Assembly (NCBI GenBank): GCA_039794085.1 | Contig: JBDIWC010000003.1 | Location: forward strand, 1-64,000 | Reading direction: 5' to 3' | Source of the DNA: Gemmatimonadales bacterium | GTDB lineage: Bacteria > Gemmatimonadota > Gemmatimonadetes > Gemmatimonadales > GWC2-71-9 | Length of the DNA: 64,000 nt | Shown: positions 4,121 to 11,153 of the stretch, in pieces | Position numbering within the stretch: the first letter of the stretch is position 1 | How the letters are laid out: each line of letters begins with the position of its first letter | Made by a program: the position numbers and the translations under genes | Notes under the pieces: model-generated | What the model was told of the DNA's origin: nothing | The model's input: only the letters and a program-made list of their open reading frames with translations | The model's database searches: none

Positions 4121-6388
4121 ATGCGTCTCTCGCTCCGCCCGATCCCCTTTCTCCTTGCCCTGGTTGGCATTGTCCTGCCGGCCCAGGCCCAGCAGCCCGA
4201 TCCCTCCCTCCTCACCGTGGAGCGGATCTTCGGCTCGGCCGACTTCCGGGGCGAGTTCTTTGGGCCGGCCCGCTGGCTCGATGGCGGGGCGGCCTACACC
4301 ACCCTGGAACGGGCCGTTGACGGACGGGGCCGGGATCTGGTTCGCTACGAGACCGAGCGGGGAACCCGGACCATTCTGGTGGCGGCGAGCGCCCTGGTTC
4401 CCCCCGGCGCCGAGGAGCCCCTCGCCATCGAGGACTACGCCTGGTCTCCGGCGGGAGACAAGCTCCTGGTCTATACCAACAGCGAGCAGGTCTGGCGCGC
4501 CAACACCCGCGGCGACTACTGGGTGCTCGACCGTGCGAGCGGTTCCCTCCGAAAACTGGGTGGGCCCGACGCCGCTCCCTCCACCCTGATGTTCGCCAAG
4601 TTCTCGCCGGACGGAAACCGGGTCGGGTACGTGCGCGAACACGACCTCCATGTCGAGGATCTGGAGACGGGTGCCATCACCCGTCTCACGAGGAATGGCT
4701 CCCGTACCCTGATCAACGGCACCTTCGACTGGGTCTACGAGGAGGAGTTCGGCCTGCGGGACGGGTGGCGCTGGAGCCCCGACGGCCGGACTATCGCCTT
4801 CTGGCAGCTCGACGCCACCGGTGTGCGCGACTTCCACATGATCCGCACCACCGATTCGCTCTACTCCACCGTGGTGCCGGTGCAGTACCCCAAGGCGGGG
4901 GAAGCCAATTCTGCCGCCCGCGTGGGTGTCATTCCGGCCACCGGCGGAGAGATCCGCTGGTTTGCTCTCCCCGGCGATCCCCGCAACACCTACCCGGCCC
5001 GGATGGAGTGGGCCGCCAACTCGGACGAGGTGGTGATCCAGTACCTCAATCGGCTCCAGAACCGTCTCCAGCTCCTCCTCGGCGACGCCCGCACCGGGGC
5101 GGTCCGGCCCATTCTCGTGGAGGAGGACAGCGCCTGGGTGGACGTGGTGGACGACATGGTCTGGATGGAGAACGGCCAGGCCTTCACCTGGGTCAGCGAA
5201 CGGGATGGATGGAACCACCTCTACCTGGTGAGCCGCGACGGGACGTCGGTGCGGCTCCTCACCCCGGGCGACTTCGACGTCCTCAACGTGCTCTCGATAG
5301 ACACCCGGGGCGGATACGTGTACTACATTGCCTCGCCCGACCAGCCGGCCCAGCGGTACCTCTACCGGGCCCGCCTCGACGGGAAGGGGAGTCCCGAGCG
5401 GCTTTCCCCCCTGGATGCGGCGGGGAGCCACGGCTATACCATCTCTCCCGATGCCCGGTGGGCCTTCCACACGATGTCGGCCTTCGGGCTTCCTCCAGCC
5501 ATCGACCTGGTCCGGTTGCCCGACCACCGGCCCGTGCGGGTCCTTGCCGCCAACACGGCGCTTCGGCAGAGGATGGAGGGACTCCGCCGCGGTCCCGTCT
5601 CCTTCGAAACCATTGACGCGGACAACGGGGAACGGCTCCAGGCCTGGGTCATGAAGCCGGCGGACTTCGACTCCACTCGGCGGTATCCTGTCCTTTTCTA
5701 TGTCTATGGCGGCCCGGGAAGCCAGACCGTGCTCGACAGCTGGGGCGGGAGCCGATACCTGTGGCACCTGATGCTCACCCAGAAGGGGTACGTGGTGGCG
5801 AGCATCGACAACCGGGGCACCGGCGCTCGCGGGAGTGCCTTCCGGAAGGTCACCTACGGCCGGCTCGGCGTGGTGGAGACCGAGGATCAGATCGCCGCGG
5901 CCCGGGCGTTTGCCCGGCGGCCCTGGGTGGATCCCGCGCGACTCGGCATCTGGGGATGGAGCTACGGCGGGTTCATGACCCTCAACAGTCTCTTCCAGGG
6001 GAACGATGTGTATCGGATGGGGATCGCCGTGGCGCCGGTCACCCACTGGCAATACTACGACAACATCTACACCGAGCGGTACAACGGCTTGCCCCAGCAG
6101 AATCGCGAGGGGTACGACACCGGTTCCCCCTTGTCGTATGTCTCGGGCCTCACGGGCGATCTTCTGCTCGTGCATGGAACGGGAGACGACAATGTCCACT
6201 ATCAGAACTCCGAGGCGCTCATCAATGCGCTGGTGGCGGCCAACAAACCGTTTGATTTCATGAGCTATCCCAACCGGAACCACAGCATCTCCGGAGGCAC
6301 CACGTCGGTGCATCTCTTCTCGACCATGACCCGTTATCTGGATGAGCATCTACTCCGACCTGTTCGGGAGGCATCGTTGACCCCCTGA
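4121..6388 (+). CDS. S9B dipeptidyl-peptidase IV-like serine peptidase, secreted
   Basis: Signal peptide; DPPIV_N motif DWVYEEE; catalytic GWSYGG, HGTGDDNVH and RNHSI. Confidence 0.95.
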   Translation: MRLSLRPIPFLLALVGIVLPAQAQQPDPSLLTVERIFGSADFRGEFFGPARWLDGGAAYTTLERAVDGRGRDLVRYETERGTRTILVAASALVPPGAEEPLAIEDYAWSPAGDKLLVYTNSEQVWRANTRGDYWVLDRASGSLRKLGGPDAAPSTLMFAKFSPDGNRVGYVREHDLHVEDLETGAITRLTRNGSRTLINGTFDWVYEEEFGLRDGWRWSPDGRTIAFWQLDATGVRDFHMIRTTDSLYSTVVPVQYPKAGEANSAARVGVIPATGGEIRWFALPGDPRNTYPARMEWAANSDEVVIQYLNRLQNRLQLLLGDARTGAVRPILVEEDSAWVDVVDDMVWMENGQAFTWVSERDGWNHLYLVSRDGTSVRLLTPGDFDVLNVLSIDTRGGYVYYIASPDQPAQRYLYRARLDGKGSPERLSPLDAAGSHGYTISPDARWAFHTMSAFGLPPAIDLVRLPDHRPVRVLAANTALRQRMEGLRRGPVSFETIDADNGERLQAWVMKPADFDSTRRYPVLFYVYGGPGSQTVLDSWGGSRYLWHLMLTQKGYVVASIDNRGTGARGSAFRKVTYGRLGVVETEDQIAAARAFARRPWVDPARLGIWGWSYGGFMTLNSLFQGNDVYRMGIAVAPVTHWQYYDNIYTERYNGLPQQNREGYDTGSPLSYVSGLTGDLLLVHGTGDDNVHYQNSEALINALVAANKPFDFMSYPNRNHSISGGTTSVHLFSTMTRYLDEHLLRPVREASLTP

Positions 6389-6421: not shown

Positions 6422-6637
6422 ATGCAGTACGAAGCGATCGTGGAATTGCTCGACTGGGCGGGAGGGCATGAGCAGGCGGTGCGGATCACCACGTCCGACC
6501 ACAACACGGTCCAGGGGATTCCCACCAGCGTCGACACCCATGTGGCGGCGCACGAGGTCTACATCCGTCCCCTGGGAATCGAGGATACCGAAATCGCCGT
6601 TTCCCTCGGTGCCATCGAGTCGGTCGAGTTGGCCTAG
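6422..6637 (+). CDS. Hypothetical 71-aa protein, possibly Sm/LSm-like fold
   Basis: RBS GGAGG; N-terminal helix followed by beta-strand pattern (VRITT..VQG....VD...VYI...IAVSLGAIESVEL). Confidence 0.6.
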   Translation: MQYEAIVELLDWAGGHEQAVRITTSDHNTVQGIPTSVDTHVAAHEVYIRPLGIEDTEIAVSLGAIESVELA

Positions 6638-6659: not shown

Positions 6660-6686
6660 TGAAACATTTCACCGGCCCGCTCCGTA
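6660..6686 (+). promoter_or_regulatory. Putative ECF-sigma promoter for the small-protein/pspA cluster
   Basis: TGAAAC(6660)-N17-CGTA(6683), close to the SigW-type TGAAAC-N16-CGTA consensus, about 28 nt before the first start codon. Confidence 0.45.
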
Positions 6687-6713: not shown

Positions 6714-6980
6714 GTGGACAGACAGACGCTCGCGGTGATGATCCCTGTGCTCGCGGTGTTTTTCACCGGGCTCGTGGCGTTGTCTCGCACGGCCATCGGG
6801 AAGGCGCTGGCCCGGCGGATCGGGGGCGAGACCGGCGCCCACCTCGATGAGCATCGGCTGGCGGTCCTGGAGGATGACATGGAGCGGCTCCGGCAGGAGT
6901 TGATGGAGACGCAGGAGCGGCTCGATTTTGCCGAACGGCTCCTGGCGGCGCCGGCCCGAGGAGGGAGTGGAGAGGAGTGA
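6714..6980 (+). CDS. PspB-like single-TM coiled-coil protein, paralog 1
   Basis: TM helix, AIGKALARRI, coiled coil ending QERLDFAERLL. RBS spacing favours GTG at 6714 over 6708. Confidence 0.8.
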   Translation: MDRQTLAVMIPVLAVFFTGLVALSRTAIGKALARRIGGETGAHLDEHRLAVLEDDMERLRQELMETQERLDFAERLLAAPARGGSGEE

Positions 6981-7019
6981 GAAGCGAGAGAATGCGCTAC
7001 GCCGGGGAGGGCGTCCGAG

Positions 7020-7295
7020 ATGGGTGAGCTGGTGCCGATCTTCGGGATGATGACCGGAATCGTCATGATGACGGTCCTCGGCATCACCATCGTGAAGGTG
7101 TTGAACGGGCCGGTGGGGAAGGCCCTGGCGAAGCGCATGGGGTACGGCGGCGAGGGAGAGGAACCCTCCCCTGAAACCGAGGCGTTGTTGGAGCGGCTCG
7201 AGTCGGTGGAACACCGGCTCGTCGAGACCGAAGAGCGCCTGGAGTTCACCGAGCGGTTGCTCAGTGATCCCGCCCGGCGAGGGGACGGGACCTAG
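7020..7295 (+). CDS. PspB-like single-TM coiled-coil protein, paralog 2
   Basis: TM helix, PVGKALAKRM, EERLEFTERLL. Confidence 0.8.
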   Translation: MGELVPIFGMMTGIVMMTVLGITIVKVLNGPVGKALAKRMGYGGEGEEPSPETEALLERLESVEHRLVETEERLEFTERLLSDPARRGDGT

Positions 7296-7298
7296 CAG

Positions 7299-7538
7299 AT
7301 GGAAGACATCCTCGCCATTACGTTCCTGTTCGGTGGTGGCACGCTGGCGGCGATCTCGTTCAGCCCCATCGGCCGGGCGATCGCCGACCGCATCCGGGGG
7401 AGAAAGGGTCCGGAAGGGCCGGACCAGGCGCTCCTGGACGAGGTGGAACGGCTGAGAGTGGAATTGACCGAGGTTCAGGAGCGTCTGGACTTTGCCGAGC
7501 GGCTGCTGGCGCCGCGAGGAGTGAGTGGAGAGGAGTGA
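7299..7538 (+). CDS. PspB-like single-TM coiled-coil protein, paralog 3
   Basis: TM with FGGG, PIGRAIADRI, QERLDFAERLL. Confidence 0.8.
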   Translation: MEDILAITFLFGGGTLAAISFSPIGRAIADRIRGRKGPEGPDQALLDEVERLRVELTEVQERLDFAERLLAPRGVSGEE

Positions 7539-7636
7539 AACCGCGAGGAGTGAGTGAAGAGGAGTGAGAAGTGAGATAGCACGAGACGTTCGCCGTGCGT
7601 GGAATTGCTCCCCAACCGGAACCAAGGTGGCTGGTT

Positions 7637-7879
7637 ATGGAAGGCGTGCTCGCAATCATCTTCATCTTCGGCGGCGGAACGCTGTTCCTGCTGTCGGTGA
7701 GCCCTGTCGGGAAGGCCTTTGCCGAGCGGTTGCGGGGACATCCCTCCGCGACGCAGGATCCGGAGATTCTCGACGAGCTGCACCAGCTCCGCCAAGACGT
7801 TGCTGAACTTCAGGAACGGGTGGATTTCGCGGAGCGGTTGCTCTCCGACGGACGGCGGGAAGTAGGAAGTAGGGAGTAG
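7637..7879 (+). CDS. PspB-like single-TM coiled-coil protein, paralog 4
   Basis: TM with FGGG, PVGKAFAERL, QERVDFAERLL. Confidence 0.8.
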   Translation: MEGVLAIIFIFGGGTLFLLSVSPVGKAFAERLRGHPSATQDPEILDELHQLRQDVAELQERVDFAERLLSDGRREVGSRE

Positions 7880-7909
7880 GGAATAGGGAGTAGGGAATAG
7901 GGAATAGGG
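7856..7909 (+). repeat. GGGA(A/G)TA heptamer tandem repeat
   Basis: About 7 units of ggaagta/gggagta/gggaata overlapping the stop of paralog 4. Confidence 0.8.
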
Positions 7910-7937
7910 AGGACGGAATGGGGATTGCAGACGGAAC

Positions 7938-7963
7938 GTCACCCCGGCGAATGCCGGGGTCCA
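7938..7963 (+). repeat. REP-like palindrome GTCACCCCGGCGAATGCCGGGGTCCA
   Basis: Same family as the copies at 11181, 11363, 11534 and 17082, and the degenerate inverted copy at about 18065. Confidence 0.8.
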
Positions 7964-8012
7964 GCGGTGGGGGGCGCACCGATGGACAAACAGCCTGGGA
8001 GGACACACCACG

Positions 8013-8387
8013 ATGGCACCAATGGAGATGGCCGCAGGGATGCTGATCCAGGTTCCAGCTCCGCCGCTGCCGCCGGAGGTGGTGGTCCTCCCCGGTGGCC
8101 CCCCCGAGGAAGTGATCCTGTTCGTGAGCTTGGCTGTGTTGGCCGCGGGGTTCTTCCTCCTGCGCCCTCTCTTCCGCGCCTGGGCTCGGCGCATCGAAGG
8201 CGGGGCGACCTCCCCCGAGCTGGTGGCGGACGTCGAGCAGTTGCGGGAGCGACTGCAGGACGTGGATCTGCTGTACCAGCGGATTGGGGAGCTGGAGGAG
8301 CGAGTGGACTTTGCCGAGCGGTTGTTGACCCACGGAGGGACCGCGGCCCCAGAGACGGCCTCTCTCACCCCCGATTCCGCGGCATGA
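8013..8387 (+). CDS. PspB-like coiled-coil membrane protein, paralog 5 (Pro-rich N-terminus)
   Basis: Pro-rich leader, TM helix, PLFRAWARRI, EERVDFAERLL; RBS GGAGGA. Confidence 0.8.
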   Translation: MAPMEMAAGMLIQVPAPPLPPEVVVLPGGPPEEVILFVSLAVLAAGFFLLRPLFRAWARRIEGGATSPELVADVEQLRERLQDVDLLYQRIGELEERVDFAERLLTHGGTAAPETASLTPDSAA

Positions 8388-8752
8388 GCTGGAAACTCGG
8401 GCTCGACGGCTGGGATGTCGCCCTCCATGTCGTGGTGACGGGCGCCTTGGCCGCCGCGATTGGGGAGATGGTGCGGGGACCTGACGCCGATTGGATGGTG
8501 TCGCTCGTGATCGGCATGTCCGGGGTGGTCTTTGGCATCCGGCGGCGGCGGGCACTCCGGCGGGCTCCCCCCGAACTGGTGGCTGGCGAACTGGACCGGT
8601 CCCGTCTCGATGACCTGGAGGATCGGGTCCTTGTCTGCGAACAGGTCGTGGCCCGGCTGGCGGAACTGGAGGAGAGGCTTGACTTTGCGGAGCGACTTCT
8701 CACCCAGTCCTCCCGGGCGGAAAGGATCGAGCTCCCCGAGGGGGACCGGTAG
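8384..8752 (+). CDS. PspB-like coiled-coil membrane protein, paralog 6 (two hydrophobic segments)
   Basis: ATGA overlap with paralog 5; MSWKLGLDGWDVALH..., two hydrophobic segments, EERLDFAERLL. Confidence 0.8.
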   Translation: MSWKLGLDGWDVALHVVVTGALAAAIGEMVRGPDADWMVSLVIGMSGVVFGIRRRRALRRAPPELVAGELDRSRLDDLEDRVLVCEQVVARLAELEERLDFAERLLTQSSRAERIELPEGDR

Positions 8753-8827
8753 CACGCACCACCGTCAGGGAGTATAGATTTCAGGCTTGAACCGCGGTTC
8801 GGCGTCGGCCGCAGAAGGGATCCGGGC

Positions 8828-9223
8828 ATGGTCACGCAAGACGACATCCAGTCGTTCATCGATCGCCTCGACAGCGGGGTGATGACCACCGAGGAGGTGG
8901 AACCGGGCCTGTGGGTAGCACGGACCACGGATGGGGCCGAGCTGGTGGTGAACTACGCTCCCCCGGTGGTGATCCTCCGAGTGCGCGTCATGGAGAGCCC
9001 CGAGGACGGCGAGAAGCGCGCCGATCTCTTCCGGCACCTCCTGGAGCTGAACGCCCGCGACCTGGTGCATGGCTCCTATGGACTGGAGGGCAACGAGGTC
9101 GTCCTCACGGACACCCTGGATCTGGCCGATCTCGACTTCAGCGAATTCCAGGCAAGTTTCGACTCGATCACGCTGGCCCTCGCCTCCCATCTCGGGGCGC
9201 TGGCGACATACCGCGAAAGGTAA
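8828..9223 (+). CDS. YbjN/CesT-type chaperone-fold protein
   Basis: Small acidic protein with LFRHLLELNA..HGSYGLEG..VVL and a C-terminal amphipathic helix; 4 nt upstream of pspA. Confidence 0.7.
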   Translation: MVTQDDIQSFIDRLDSGVMTTEEVEPGLWVARTTDGAELVVNYAPPVVILRVRVMESPEDGEKRADLFRHLLELNARDLVHGSYGLEGNEVVLTDTLDLADLDFSEFQASFDSITLALASHLGALATYRER

Positions 9224-9227
9224 GGCC

Positions 9228-10019
9228 ATGGGACTCTGGGACCGTTTCACCACGATGTTCAGGTCCAACATCAATGATCTGATTTCGCGGGCCGAGAACC
9301 CCGAGAAGATGCTGAACCAGCTGATTCTCGACATGAAGTCGCAGCTCGCCAAGGCCAAGCAGCAGGCCGCCTCGGCGATCGCCGACGAGAAGAAGCTCCA
9401 CGCCGACGCCGAGGCGATGAAGAAGTCCGCCGAGGAGTGGGAACGGCGGGCCATGCTCGCGGTGCAGGAGGGCCGGGACGACCTCGCCACCCAGGCGCTC
9501 ATGCGCTACAACGAGAGCCTCCAGGGCGCCCAGCAACTGCACGAAACCTGGGTCAAGCACAAGGCCGACACCGAACAGCTCAAGACCTCCCTCAAGGCGC
9601 TGCACGACAAGATCGAGGAGGCGAAGCGAAAGAAGAACATTCTCGTGGCCCGCGCCAAGCGCGCCGAGGCCCAGCAGCGCATCCACGAGACCATGGCGGG
9701 GATGTCCGACAAGAGCGCCTTCGAGTCGTTCGAGCGGATGGCGGAACGGATCGAGGACGTGGAGCGGAAGGCCCTCGCCGCCGCCGAACTCCAGGAGGAG
9801 TTCCAGGGCGACGATCTGATGAAGCAGTTCGAGTCGCTCGAATACAAAGGAAGCGCCGATCAACAGCTTTTGGCCCTCAAGGCCCGCATGGGTCTCCTGG
9901 GAGAGGGGGAGAAGGCCGAAACCCGTCAGCTCCAGGCCGGCGACGATGACACCGGCGACGCCGAAATCATCGAGGACGACGGGGGAGACAACCCGCCCGG
10001 CCACGGGAAGTCTTCCTGA
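9228..10019 (+). CDS. pspA: PspA/IM30 (bacterial ESCRT-III) family protein
   Basis: MGLWDRFTTMFRSNINDLISRAENPEKMLNQLILDM, WERRAMLAVQEGRDDLA and FERMAERIE signatures. Confidence 0.93.
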   Translation: MGLWDRFTTMFRSNINDLISRAENPEKMLNQLILDMKSQLAKAKQQAASAIADEKKLHADAEAMKKSAEEWERRAMLAVQEGRDDLATQALMRYNESLQGAQQLHETWVKHKADTEQLKTSLKALHDKIEEAKRKKNILVARAKRAEAQQRIHETMAGMSDKSAFESFERMAERIEDVERKALAAAELQEEFQGDDLMKQFESLEYKGSADQQLLALKARMGLLGEGEKAETRQLQAGDDDTGDAEIIEDDGGDNPPGHGKSS

Positions 10020-10026
10020 GGGAGAC

Positions 10027-10055
10027 GGGCTCGCCAACCGGCGGGCCCTTTCTCT
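10027..10055 (+). terminator. Rho-independent terminator after pspA
   Basis: GGGCTCGCC-AACC-GGCGGGCCC stem-loop followed by TTTCTCT. Confidence 0.65.
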
Positions 10056-10091
10056 ACCTTCAAACTTCCAACTTCAAACTTCGAACTTCCC

Positions 10092-11153
10092 ATGCCCCGG
10101 TTTCTGATTCTGGCTGACGGCGACTTCGCGCCGATGACCTCGAAGACCGCCAACTCGGTCATCCGCTACCGGCCCGGCGGTGTCGCGGCGGTGCTCGACC
10201 GGTCGCGCGCAGGTCAAACGGCGCAGGCGGTGCTTGGGTTCGGGGGAGACATTCCGGTCGTGGCGTCGGTGCGGGAAGGTCTGGCCCTCGGAGCCGATGC
10301 GGTGATGATCGGGATCGCCCCGATCGGGGGGCGCCTCCCCGAGACCTGGCGCGACTGGCTCCTCGAGGCCCTGGAGGGAGGGTGCGATCTCTGGAGTGGT
10401 CTCCACACCTTCCTGGCCGACGATCCCCGCCTCGCCACCCGGGCCCGGGAACTGGGGCGGACCATCCACGATCTCCGGCGCCCGCCCGCCAACCTCCCGG
10501 TCGGTTCGGGCAAGGCGCGGGAGGTGGGACCGTTCGTGCTCCTGACGGTGGGGACCGACTGCAACGTCGGCAAGATGACGGCCCAGCTCCAGCTCACCGC
10601 GGCGTTGAATGCGCGCGGGGTGCGAACCCGGTTCGTTCCCACCGGGCAGACCGGAATCCTGATCGAGGGGTGGGGCATCGGCGTGGACGCCGTCGTGGCC
10701 GACTTCATCGCCGGTGCCGCGGAGCAACTGGTGCTGGAGGGGGCACGAGATGCGGACATCGTGATGGTGGAGGGGCAGGGGAGCATCAACCACCCCGGCT
10801 ACTCCGGTGTCACCCTGGGTCTGCTGCACGGGGCGTGTCCCGATGCCCTGATCCTCTGTCATCAGGCGGGCCGCCGGTTCATCGGCGAGTATCGCACTGC
10901 GGAGGCCACGCGGATCCCTCCGCTCACCGACTATGTCCGTGCCTATGAGCTGATGGGCTCCATGGTCCATCCGACGAAGGTGATCGGCGTCTGCCTCAAC
11001 ACGGTCGGGATGACCGACGAGGAGGCAGCACGGGAGTGTGAGGCAGCTCGGCGGGAGACGGGGTTGCCGGCCACCGATCCGGTGCGGGATCCGAAGGATG
11101 AGTCTCTGGTGGAGGCGATCCTGCGGGCCCGCGCGGAGTATCTCGTCCGGTAA
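10092..11153 (+). CDS. DUF1611-family P-loop protein (DgcN-like)
   Basis: SKTANSVIRY, TVGTDCNVGKMTA, PTGQTGILI, VEGQGSINHPGYSGVTLGLLHG. Confidence 0.88.
   Translation: MPRFLILADGDFAPMTSKTANSVIRYRPGGVAAVLDRSRAGQTAQAVLGFGGDIPVVASVREGLALGADAVMIGIAPIGGRLPETWRDWLLEALEGGCDLWSGLHTFLADDPRLATRARELGRTIHDLRRPPANLPVGSGKAREVGPFVLLTVGTDCNVGKMTAQLQLTAALNARGVRTRFVPTGQTGILIEGWGIGVDAVVADFIAGAAEQLVLEGARDADIVMVEGQGSINHPGYSGVTLGLLHGACPDALILCHQAGRRFIGEYRTAEATRIPPLTDYVRAYELMGSMVHPTKVIGVCLNTVGMTDEEAARECEAARRETGLPATDPVRDPKDESLVEAILRARAEYLVR

Follow-up and report, generated by a model that had tools for sequence, protein, structure and literature searches.

Membrane partners of PspA in described systems

Several described systems co-encode a homolog of PspA (PspA/IM30, bacterial ESCRT-III) with membrane proteins that anchor or recruit it. 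In the accessible text of PMC8581546 and PMC7619361 these are the pspA-ydjGHI genes of B. subtilis, which stand under sigmaW (PMC8581546), the LiaI-LiaH pair of the same species and the Rv2743c-Rv2744c pair of Mycobacterium. PspBC, LiaI, YdjH and Rv2743c are precedents for a membrane partner of PspA, according to the available parts of PMC7619361, PMC8581546 and PMC5596341. In the CesT/Tir-PspA dyad operons (Ravi et al. 2024, PMC11237479, as far as its available sections go), a cesT-pspA pair forms the operon core, and the same pair is found in the locus described here. This locus lies in a window of 64,000 nucleotides (the whole stretch of DNA that was analysed, G000:C3:1-64000) from the genome of a Gemmatimonadales bacterium (the source genome, 94.7% complete). 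Upstream of cesT and pspA it carries an array of six small paralogous membrane proteins that share the tail ER(L/V)(D/E)F(A/T)ERLL. On balance, we regard the six as probable members of an expanded, unnamed set of PspA membrane partners that would be co-expressed under envelope stress and would oligomerise via a shared coil.

The array proteins share some features with PspB (PF06667/TIGR02976): a length of about 75-90 aa, an N-terminal transmembrane (TM) anchor, a cytoplasmic coil with weak resemblance, and a place in a pspA operon. They stay below all PspB cut-offs, however, and two of their features, the PxGxAxAxR helix and the invariant FxERLL end, are absent from E. coli PspB. In contrast to pspFABC, 1-14 diverged copies of the array family precede pspA, the source genome yielded no PspC and no match at PspF level, and the promoter motif is of the extracytoplasmic function (ECF) type. 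Duplicates of PspB within one operon are described in the available part of PMC11237479. Whereas the ydjGHI, LiaI and Rv2743c systems rely on several unrelated partners, one multiplied family is present here, and its six proteins match no curated family. In the dyad operons the partners are band-7/flotillin, AAA+ ATPase, YqiJ/YuaF and polyamine genes, and the section of PMC11237479 covered contains no array of small TM-coil proteins.

The array is apparently undescribed in print and can be seen as a variant of the systems that combine PspA with membrane partners. This agrees with a preliminary description of the same DNA, made from the sequence alone, whose author knew of no account of such an array. 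The Psp surveys PMC11237479 and PMC9239133 do not mention Gemmatimonads in their main text, nor does one supplement of PMC11237479; the web application and other data tables may bear on this. By title or abstract start, the Gemmatimonas phage-shock literature that was found holds nothing on this locus. No literature on Gemmatimonadota envelope stress together with PspA was found, in a coverage that lacks most subscription papers.

The array-cesT-pspA locus

Eight co-oriented open reading frames (ORFs) on the + strand occupy positions 6714-10019: the six paralogs, a CesT/YbjN-like gene and pspA. The features are the following:

6660-6686, + strand: ECF (sigmaW-like) promoter motif TGAAAC-N17-CGTA, 27 nt before paralog 1
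6714-6980, + strand: paralog 1, 88 aa; one TM helix, amphipathic helix, acidic coil and ERLDFAERLL tail
7020-7295, + strand: paralog 2, 91 aa; ERLEFTERLL tail
7299-7538, + strand: paralog 3, 79 aa; FGGG-type TM
7637-7879, + strand: paralog 4, 80 aa; FGGG-type TM; highest PspB score of the six
8013-8387, + strand: paralog 5, 124 aa; TM helix preceded by a proline-rich N-terminal extension
8384-8752, + strand: paralog 6, 122 aa; probably two TM segments, without the PxGxA helix; its start overlaps the stop of paralog 5
8828-9223, + strand: CesT/Tir-like (YbjN-like) chaperone-fold gene, 131 aa; PF22550 CesT_Tir_1 E 1.1e-26, PF10722 YbjN E 8.9e-6
9228-10019, + strand: pspA (PspA/IM30, bacterial ESCRT-III), 263 aa; PF04012 E 3.1e-48
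10027-10056, + strand: terminator-like hairpin (10027-10048) with T-rich tail

The six co-oriented small ORFs (79-124 aa) with a shared tail and the two genes behind them thus stand as the preliminary description had reported them. The successive intergenic gaps are 39, 3, 98, 133, -4, 75 and 4 nt, the last being the distance from the CesT-like gene to pspA. GC content at third codon positions (GC3) lies between 0.74 and 0.89 for all eight ORFs. The pspA gene is the single match in the source genome, and its product is 30% identical to E. coli PspA.

Sequence and predicted structure of the paralogs

The tail is present in all six paralogs, which are otherwise only 32-56% identical to each other over aligned columns. 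Among the 150 pairs of tail codons, 55 are identical, 77 synonymous and 18 non-synonymous. Because synonymous differences dominate, the constraint on the tail acts on the protein and not on the DNA, as had been claimed before. A DNA repeat or a set of chance ORFs is ruled out by the codon pattern, the GC3 and the conservation. In profile scans none of the six reaches a Pfam or NCBIfam cut-off.

Conservation among the aligned array proteins is 92-99% at the tail columns E60, R61, D63, F64, E66, R67 and L69. Judged from these alignments, the conservation of the tail is higher than a plain coil would need. The RhxxhE trimer motif (as defined in the available text of PMC12159747) stands immediately before the tail in 232 of the 481 distinct proteins with a located tail (523 were examined), and it is present in four of the six window paralogs.

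An AlphaFold2 model of paralog 4, built with 150 sequences, contains helices at residues 2-21, 23-32 and 42-77 (predicted local distance difference test, pLDDT, 90). The first is predicted to be a TM helix, the second, which follows a conserved proline, a short amphipathic helix, and the third, behind a variable linker, the coil. The residues after the TM helix are basic and the coil is acidic, according to the hydrophobicity and charge analysis. The positive-inside rule, by which basic residues mark the cytoplasmic side, serves as the basis for the topology call, and the charge pattern suggests that the C-terminus lies in the cytoplasm. The model and this analysis therefore predict an N-terminal TM helix with a cytoplasmic helical domain, as in PspB. 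In paralog 6 only the first of the two segments exceeds the hydrophobicity threshold. Paralogs 1-4 have fewer than about 10 residues ahead of the TM helix, so that the divergent membrane sensor ends proposed in the preliminary description find little room in four of the six proteins. A Foldseek search with the paralog 4 model gave no match, VIA-align returned generic coils only (Z up to 5.5), and no solved structure of a PspB relative was found.

Linkage to pspA and evolution of the family

A profile of the six paralogs retrieves 2291 clusters at 50% identity, and almost all named relatives that carry the array family belong to the Gemmatimonadales or Gemmatimonadota. In a sample of the phylum, 126 of 151 genomes match the family, with 4-20 matches per genome in the family of the source genome (f1). 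This family and f3 are two families of the Gemmatimonadales; f2 and f4-f8 are other families. The sample of f1 and f3 comprises 32 genomes, and pspA was located in 30 of them. In 29 of these 30, between one and nine copies lie directly upstream of pspA; the exception is cut by a contig end. A further 80 GTDB loci were chosen by similarity to paralog 4: 66 of them continue to pspA, the other 14 stop at contig ends, and up to 14 copies occur. After removal of five duplicates, 91 distinct loci with pspA remain (61 of them selected by family match), with 0-14 array copies each, where some counts take in frameshift-split pieces.

The array adjoins pspA in 90 of the 91 distinct loci, even where cesT and the upstream genes change. 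The cesT gene is found in 63 of the 91 array loci, and the other 28 keep the array without it; pspA is therefore the constant neighbour. In a FastTree phylogeny of 159 proteins (midpoint-rooted, deep branches weakly supported), window paralogs 1, 2, 3/4, 5 and 6 group with their counterparts from other genera and not with each other, which indicates that the subtypes are old. Paralog 1 forms a subtype clade of its own across three genera-level relatives.

In other orders, one divergent copy abuts cesT-pspA in eight of 20 genomes (f5 1/1, f6 6/6, f8 1/1). In each of these eight single-copy loci, no more than about 16 nt separate the end of the gene from the start of cesT. The divergent copy is homologous to the array family (hhalign 97.4%), and no Pfam label occurs among the 120 listed matches to its relatives.

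A search for long fusions (239-2000 aa; lengths of 140-239 aa lay outside it) gave four matches, one of which joins the tail to CesT. Each is confined to a single contig and has the look of frameshifted read-through, and all were rejected.

Promoter motif and regulation

The preliminary description had missed the ECF-type motif at 6660-6686. Of 110 distinct arrays, 79 have a motif of the form G(A/G/T)AAC-N16-18-CGT(A/C/T) in the 200 nt before them, whereas 20 dinucleotide shuffles gave a mean of 1.8 (maximum 4). The motif agrees with the sigmaW-type consensus given in the available part of PMC5758882, and GAAAC-N17-CGTA is inferred to act as a promoter. In f2, the motif is located 55-104 nt before cesT in all six array-less loci with cesT and is absent from the two without cesT. 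As the motif is followed at once by cesT in loci that lack the array, the array is likely to be part of the pspA transcript, and the position of the putative promoter points to co-transcription of the array with cesT-pspA. For nine of the 14 arrays without an upstream site, however, the motif is found within the array or after it, at 136-761 nt upstream of pspA, so that part of the array may be transcribed separately there.

In many loci (L006, L007, L011, L026, L028, L055 and others) the promoter spacer contains a second TGAAAC, and in about nine loci GACAC replaces GAAAC. These variants possibly reflect a second sigma factor or an operator.

The best ECF match of the source genome is SigW-like, although below the equivalog cut-off, and is followed by an anti-sigma-like ORF with a zinc motif. 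This region (G000:C6:85742-89120) continues with a bactofilin-like membrane protein and a further envelope protein. The SigW-like factor is a candidate regulator of the array-cesT-pspA operon. A sigma-70 promoter scan yielded a single weak site, inside the first gene. In one RNA run, available as contigs only, the depth stays at about 16 across genes and spacers alike, which is uninformative on transcription.

The preliminary description had noted no pspC or pspF in the window; in the 94.7% complete source genome no PF04024 (PspC) match was found, and none of its 13 AAA+ activators exceeds the TIGR02974 (PspF) cut-off. PF04024 matches are present in 15 of 72 f1 genomes. When 12 pspC loci were read, one had an adjacent family gene and 11 had none. 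A receiver-less sigma54-type activator of PspF-like size (328 aa, G000:C81:120-1106, L204) scores 194 bits against a cut-off of 444 and is unlinked to pspA. Overall, regulation looks ECF-sigma driven rather than PspF-relayed, and a transcriptional relay through PspF is unlikely in the source genome.

Relation to PspB

Of the six paralogs, paralog 4 matches TIGR02976 best (E 1.8e-4), with 21.7 bits against a cut-off of 51.7. TIGR02976 is also the commonest weak match of the family, found for 16 of 150 members at E<0.01, next to 10 of 150 for the unrelated GspM. Of the eight matches that the PspB model has in the source genome, four are family members. Its top match in that genome, however, is a coil in a protein kinase, so such scores can arise from a heptad pattern. 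For two distant members the nearest named Atlas cluster is PspB (0.80 and 0.79, to be read as leads only). When the family was compared to PspB with hhalign, values of 16% and 53% were obtained, the PspB side being a shallow enterobacterial alignment of 25 rows (Neff, the effective number of sequences, 1.5) that are 82-100% identical to E. coli. Two methods aligned the family tail and the PspB tail one heptad apart. When E. coli was searched in return with the family profile, seven candidates were scored and four matched; pspB was not one of the four, which is a weak test.

Taken together, these comparisons are only suggestive of PspB kinship of the six paralogs. The PspB-like adaptors of the preliminary description hold with respect to layout and repeated weak matches; all scores are below the cut-offs, though, with the lower hhalign value at 16% and the tails aligned in two registers. 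The family resembles PspB in layout and position, but membership in PspB is not established.

Family copies in other contexts

Five further family copies, likewise missed by the preliminary description, lie outside the array in the source genome. One of them sits after a padR gene. The source genome also has a kinase-regulator operon (at C58), without a family insert. In f2, where such operons do carry family genes (L154-L159), the same promoter motif stands upstream in four of the six loci. One f2 genome (G077, L171:1456-2438) possesses a stand-alone pspC directly before a 229-aa family member that has a long coil ahead of its TM helix. Long members of this type are widespread in f2, and the same motif precedes seven of 20 such genes. 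With an f2-type query, one to nine matches were found in 27 of 31 f2 genomes, none of them near pspA in the 17 with comparable positions.

Proposed function and competing explanations

If the six proteins are partners of PspA, a sigmaW-like ECF factor, freed from its zinc anti-sigma by membrane stress, would transcribe the array, cesT and pspA as one message. In the inner membrane, the cytoplasmic coil that they share would bring the paralogs together as homo- or hetero-oligomers. By analogy to PspBC, LiaI, YdjH and Rv2743c elsewhere, PspA polymers would then be recruited or positioned by a surface common to all paralogs, the invariant tail, and with more paralogs there would be a wider choice of membrane sites or types of oligomer.

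A number of observations weigh against such a role. The tight linkage to pspA that the preliminary description had implied stands for f1 and f3 (29/30), yet unlinked homologs occur in two other families of the class (f2 and f7), and the circumstance that its author had named as refuting it, homologs usually unlinked to pspA, is thus partly found. There, pspA lacks an adjacent copy in 8/8 f2 and 11/11 f7 loci read directly (as in the 1/1 of f4), and f2 and f7 genomes hold family members away from pspA. Outside f1 and f3, the main profile links a copy to pspA in three of 44 genomes with both, a figure that divergent copies raise. The tail also appears in other company. In the source genome (G000:C63:165-539, L177) a TM2 domain (PF05154 E 2e-19) is fused to an ERhDFxERLL tail, and this fusion has full-length matches in 60 of 72 f1 genomes. 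Across the class, a tail gene lies between bshC-like and murJ-like genes (names read from sequence), and in f2 (L154-L159) one or two family genes are placed between a histidine kinase and an NtrC-type regulator. Behind the same promoter motif, a second array of three copies (L145, G076:C72) has a gene for a tricorn-like protease (also named from its sequence) where pspA would stand. With regard to PspB, none of 201 genomes of the phylum reaches the PF06667 cut-off, the best score (22.3 versus 25.6 bits) being that of an array gene, and E. coli PspB obtains 11 bits on the family profile, a score equalled by nine of 500 block shuffles. Given the other settings in which the tail occurs, its partner is not necessarily PspA.

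These points lead to a possible, if less probable, explanation: the proteins could be membrane-stress effectors that act independently of PspA and share only its ECF regulon and operon, with the tail as a surface for self-assembly or as the site of another partner. The dispersed copies in f2 and f7 fit this, as do the motif before loci without pspA (the protease array, the kinase-regulator operons and seven of 20 long f2-type genes) and the trimer motif directly before the tail (232/481). Moreover, Yersinia PspBC protect against secretins without PspA (PMC5596341, in its available part). Such effectors would not explain why the array stays beside pspA in 90 of 91 loci (61 being family-selected) despite changes in cesT and the upstream genes, or why the single copy of other orders occupies the same position. 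The proposal of the preliminary description, that the paralogs are true multiplied PspB homologs which each sense a different envelope stress and relay it to PspA, appears unlikely. It can draw on the PspB size and layout, the repeated weak PspB matches, the subtypes with distinct TM and N-terminal ends kept across genera, and the f2 genome with pspC directly before a long family member (one of 12 pspC loci read). It has to contend with scores below every PspB cut-off and hhalign values of 16% and 53% against a shallow alignment, with the near absence of an outside segment in four of the six proteins, with a PspC that was not found in the source genome and that only 15 of 72 f1 genomes have, and with an ECF-type motif where no activator reaches the PspF cut-off. 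Finally, the CesT-like chaperone could bind the tail as its client or docking helix and in turn link to PspA. We consider this highly improbable: the single-copy genes that end within about 16 nt of cesT in eight loci and the presence of cesT in 63 of 91 array loci are in its favour, but 28 of 91 arrays do without cesT, and cesT-pspA persists without an array in f2, f4 and f7.

Within the preferred reading as PspA partners, a bolder and rather doubtful extension may be considered. The ERhDFxERLL helix might be a portable ESCRT-III docking module, which Gemmatimonadetes would attach to single-TM, two-TM, TM2 and long-extracytoplasmic-coil modules. Mixed in hetero-oligomers, these would provide one PspA polymer with combinatorial adaptors, up to about 20 per genome. 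If true, this would parallel in bacteria the diverse adaptors that target ESCRT-III in eukaryotes.

Knowledge of how ESCRT-III proteins of bacteria are guided to damaged membrane comes from only a few model species, and the partners differ in each of them. The present locus adds a very large unnamed family with one invariant helix as a concrete candidate partner of PspA. Related lineages with zero, one or many copies beside the same pspA provide natural contrasts, and a prominent gene family of an abundant, little-studied phylum receives an annotation.

Flanking features

The terminator that the preliminary description placed after pspA is present as a hairpin, but its count is not raised: the scan finds two such sites versus 2.0 in shuffles, which is weak evidence on its own. 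In the spacers 7540-7580, 7880-7965 and 10057-10091 there are short repeats, of low complexity or palindromic, whose further occurrences in related DNA show up as depth spikes and joints. The ordinary neighbours of the locus are a DPP IV/S9 peptidase upstream (4121-6388) and a DUF1611 protein downstream (10092-11153). Between the peptidase and the promoter motif lies an unannotated ORF of 71 aa (6422-6637, + strand) without a Pfam or NCBIfam match. Its predicted structure (pLDDT 95) resembles Hfq/Sm folds in Foldseek (prob 1.0, TM-score 0.72-0.77, 11-22% identity). The ORF is kept shortly upstream of the array in 60 distinct loci, yet it stands before the promoter motif.

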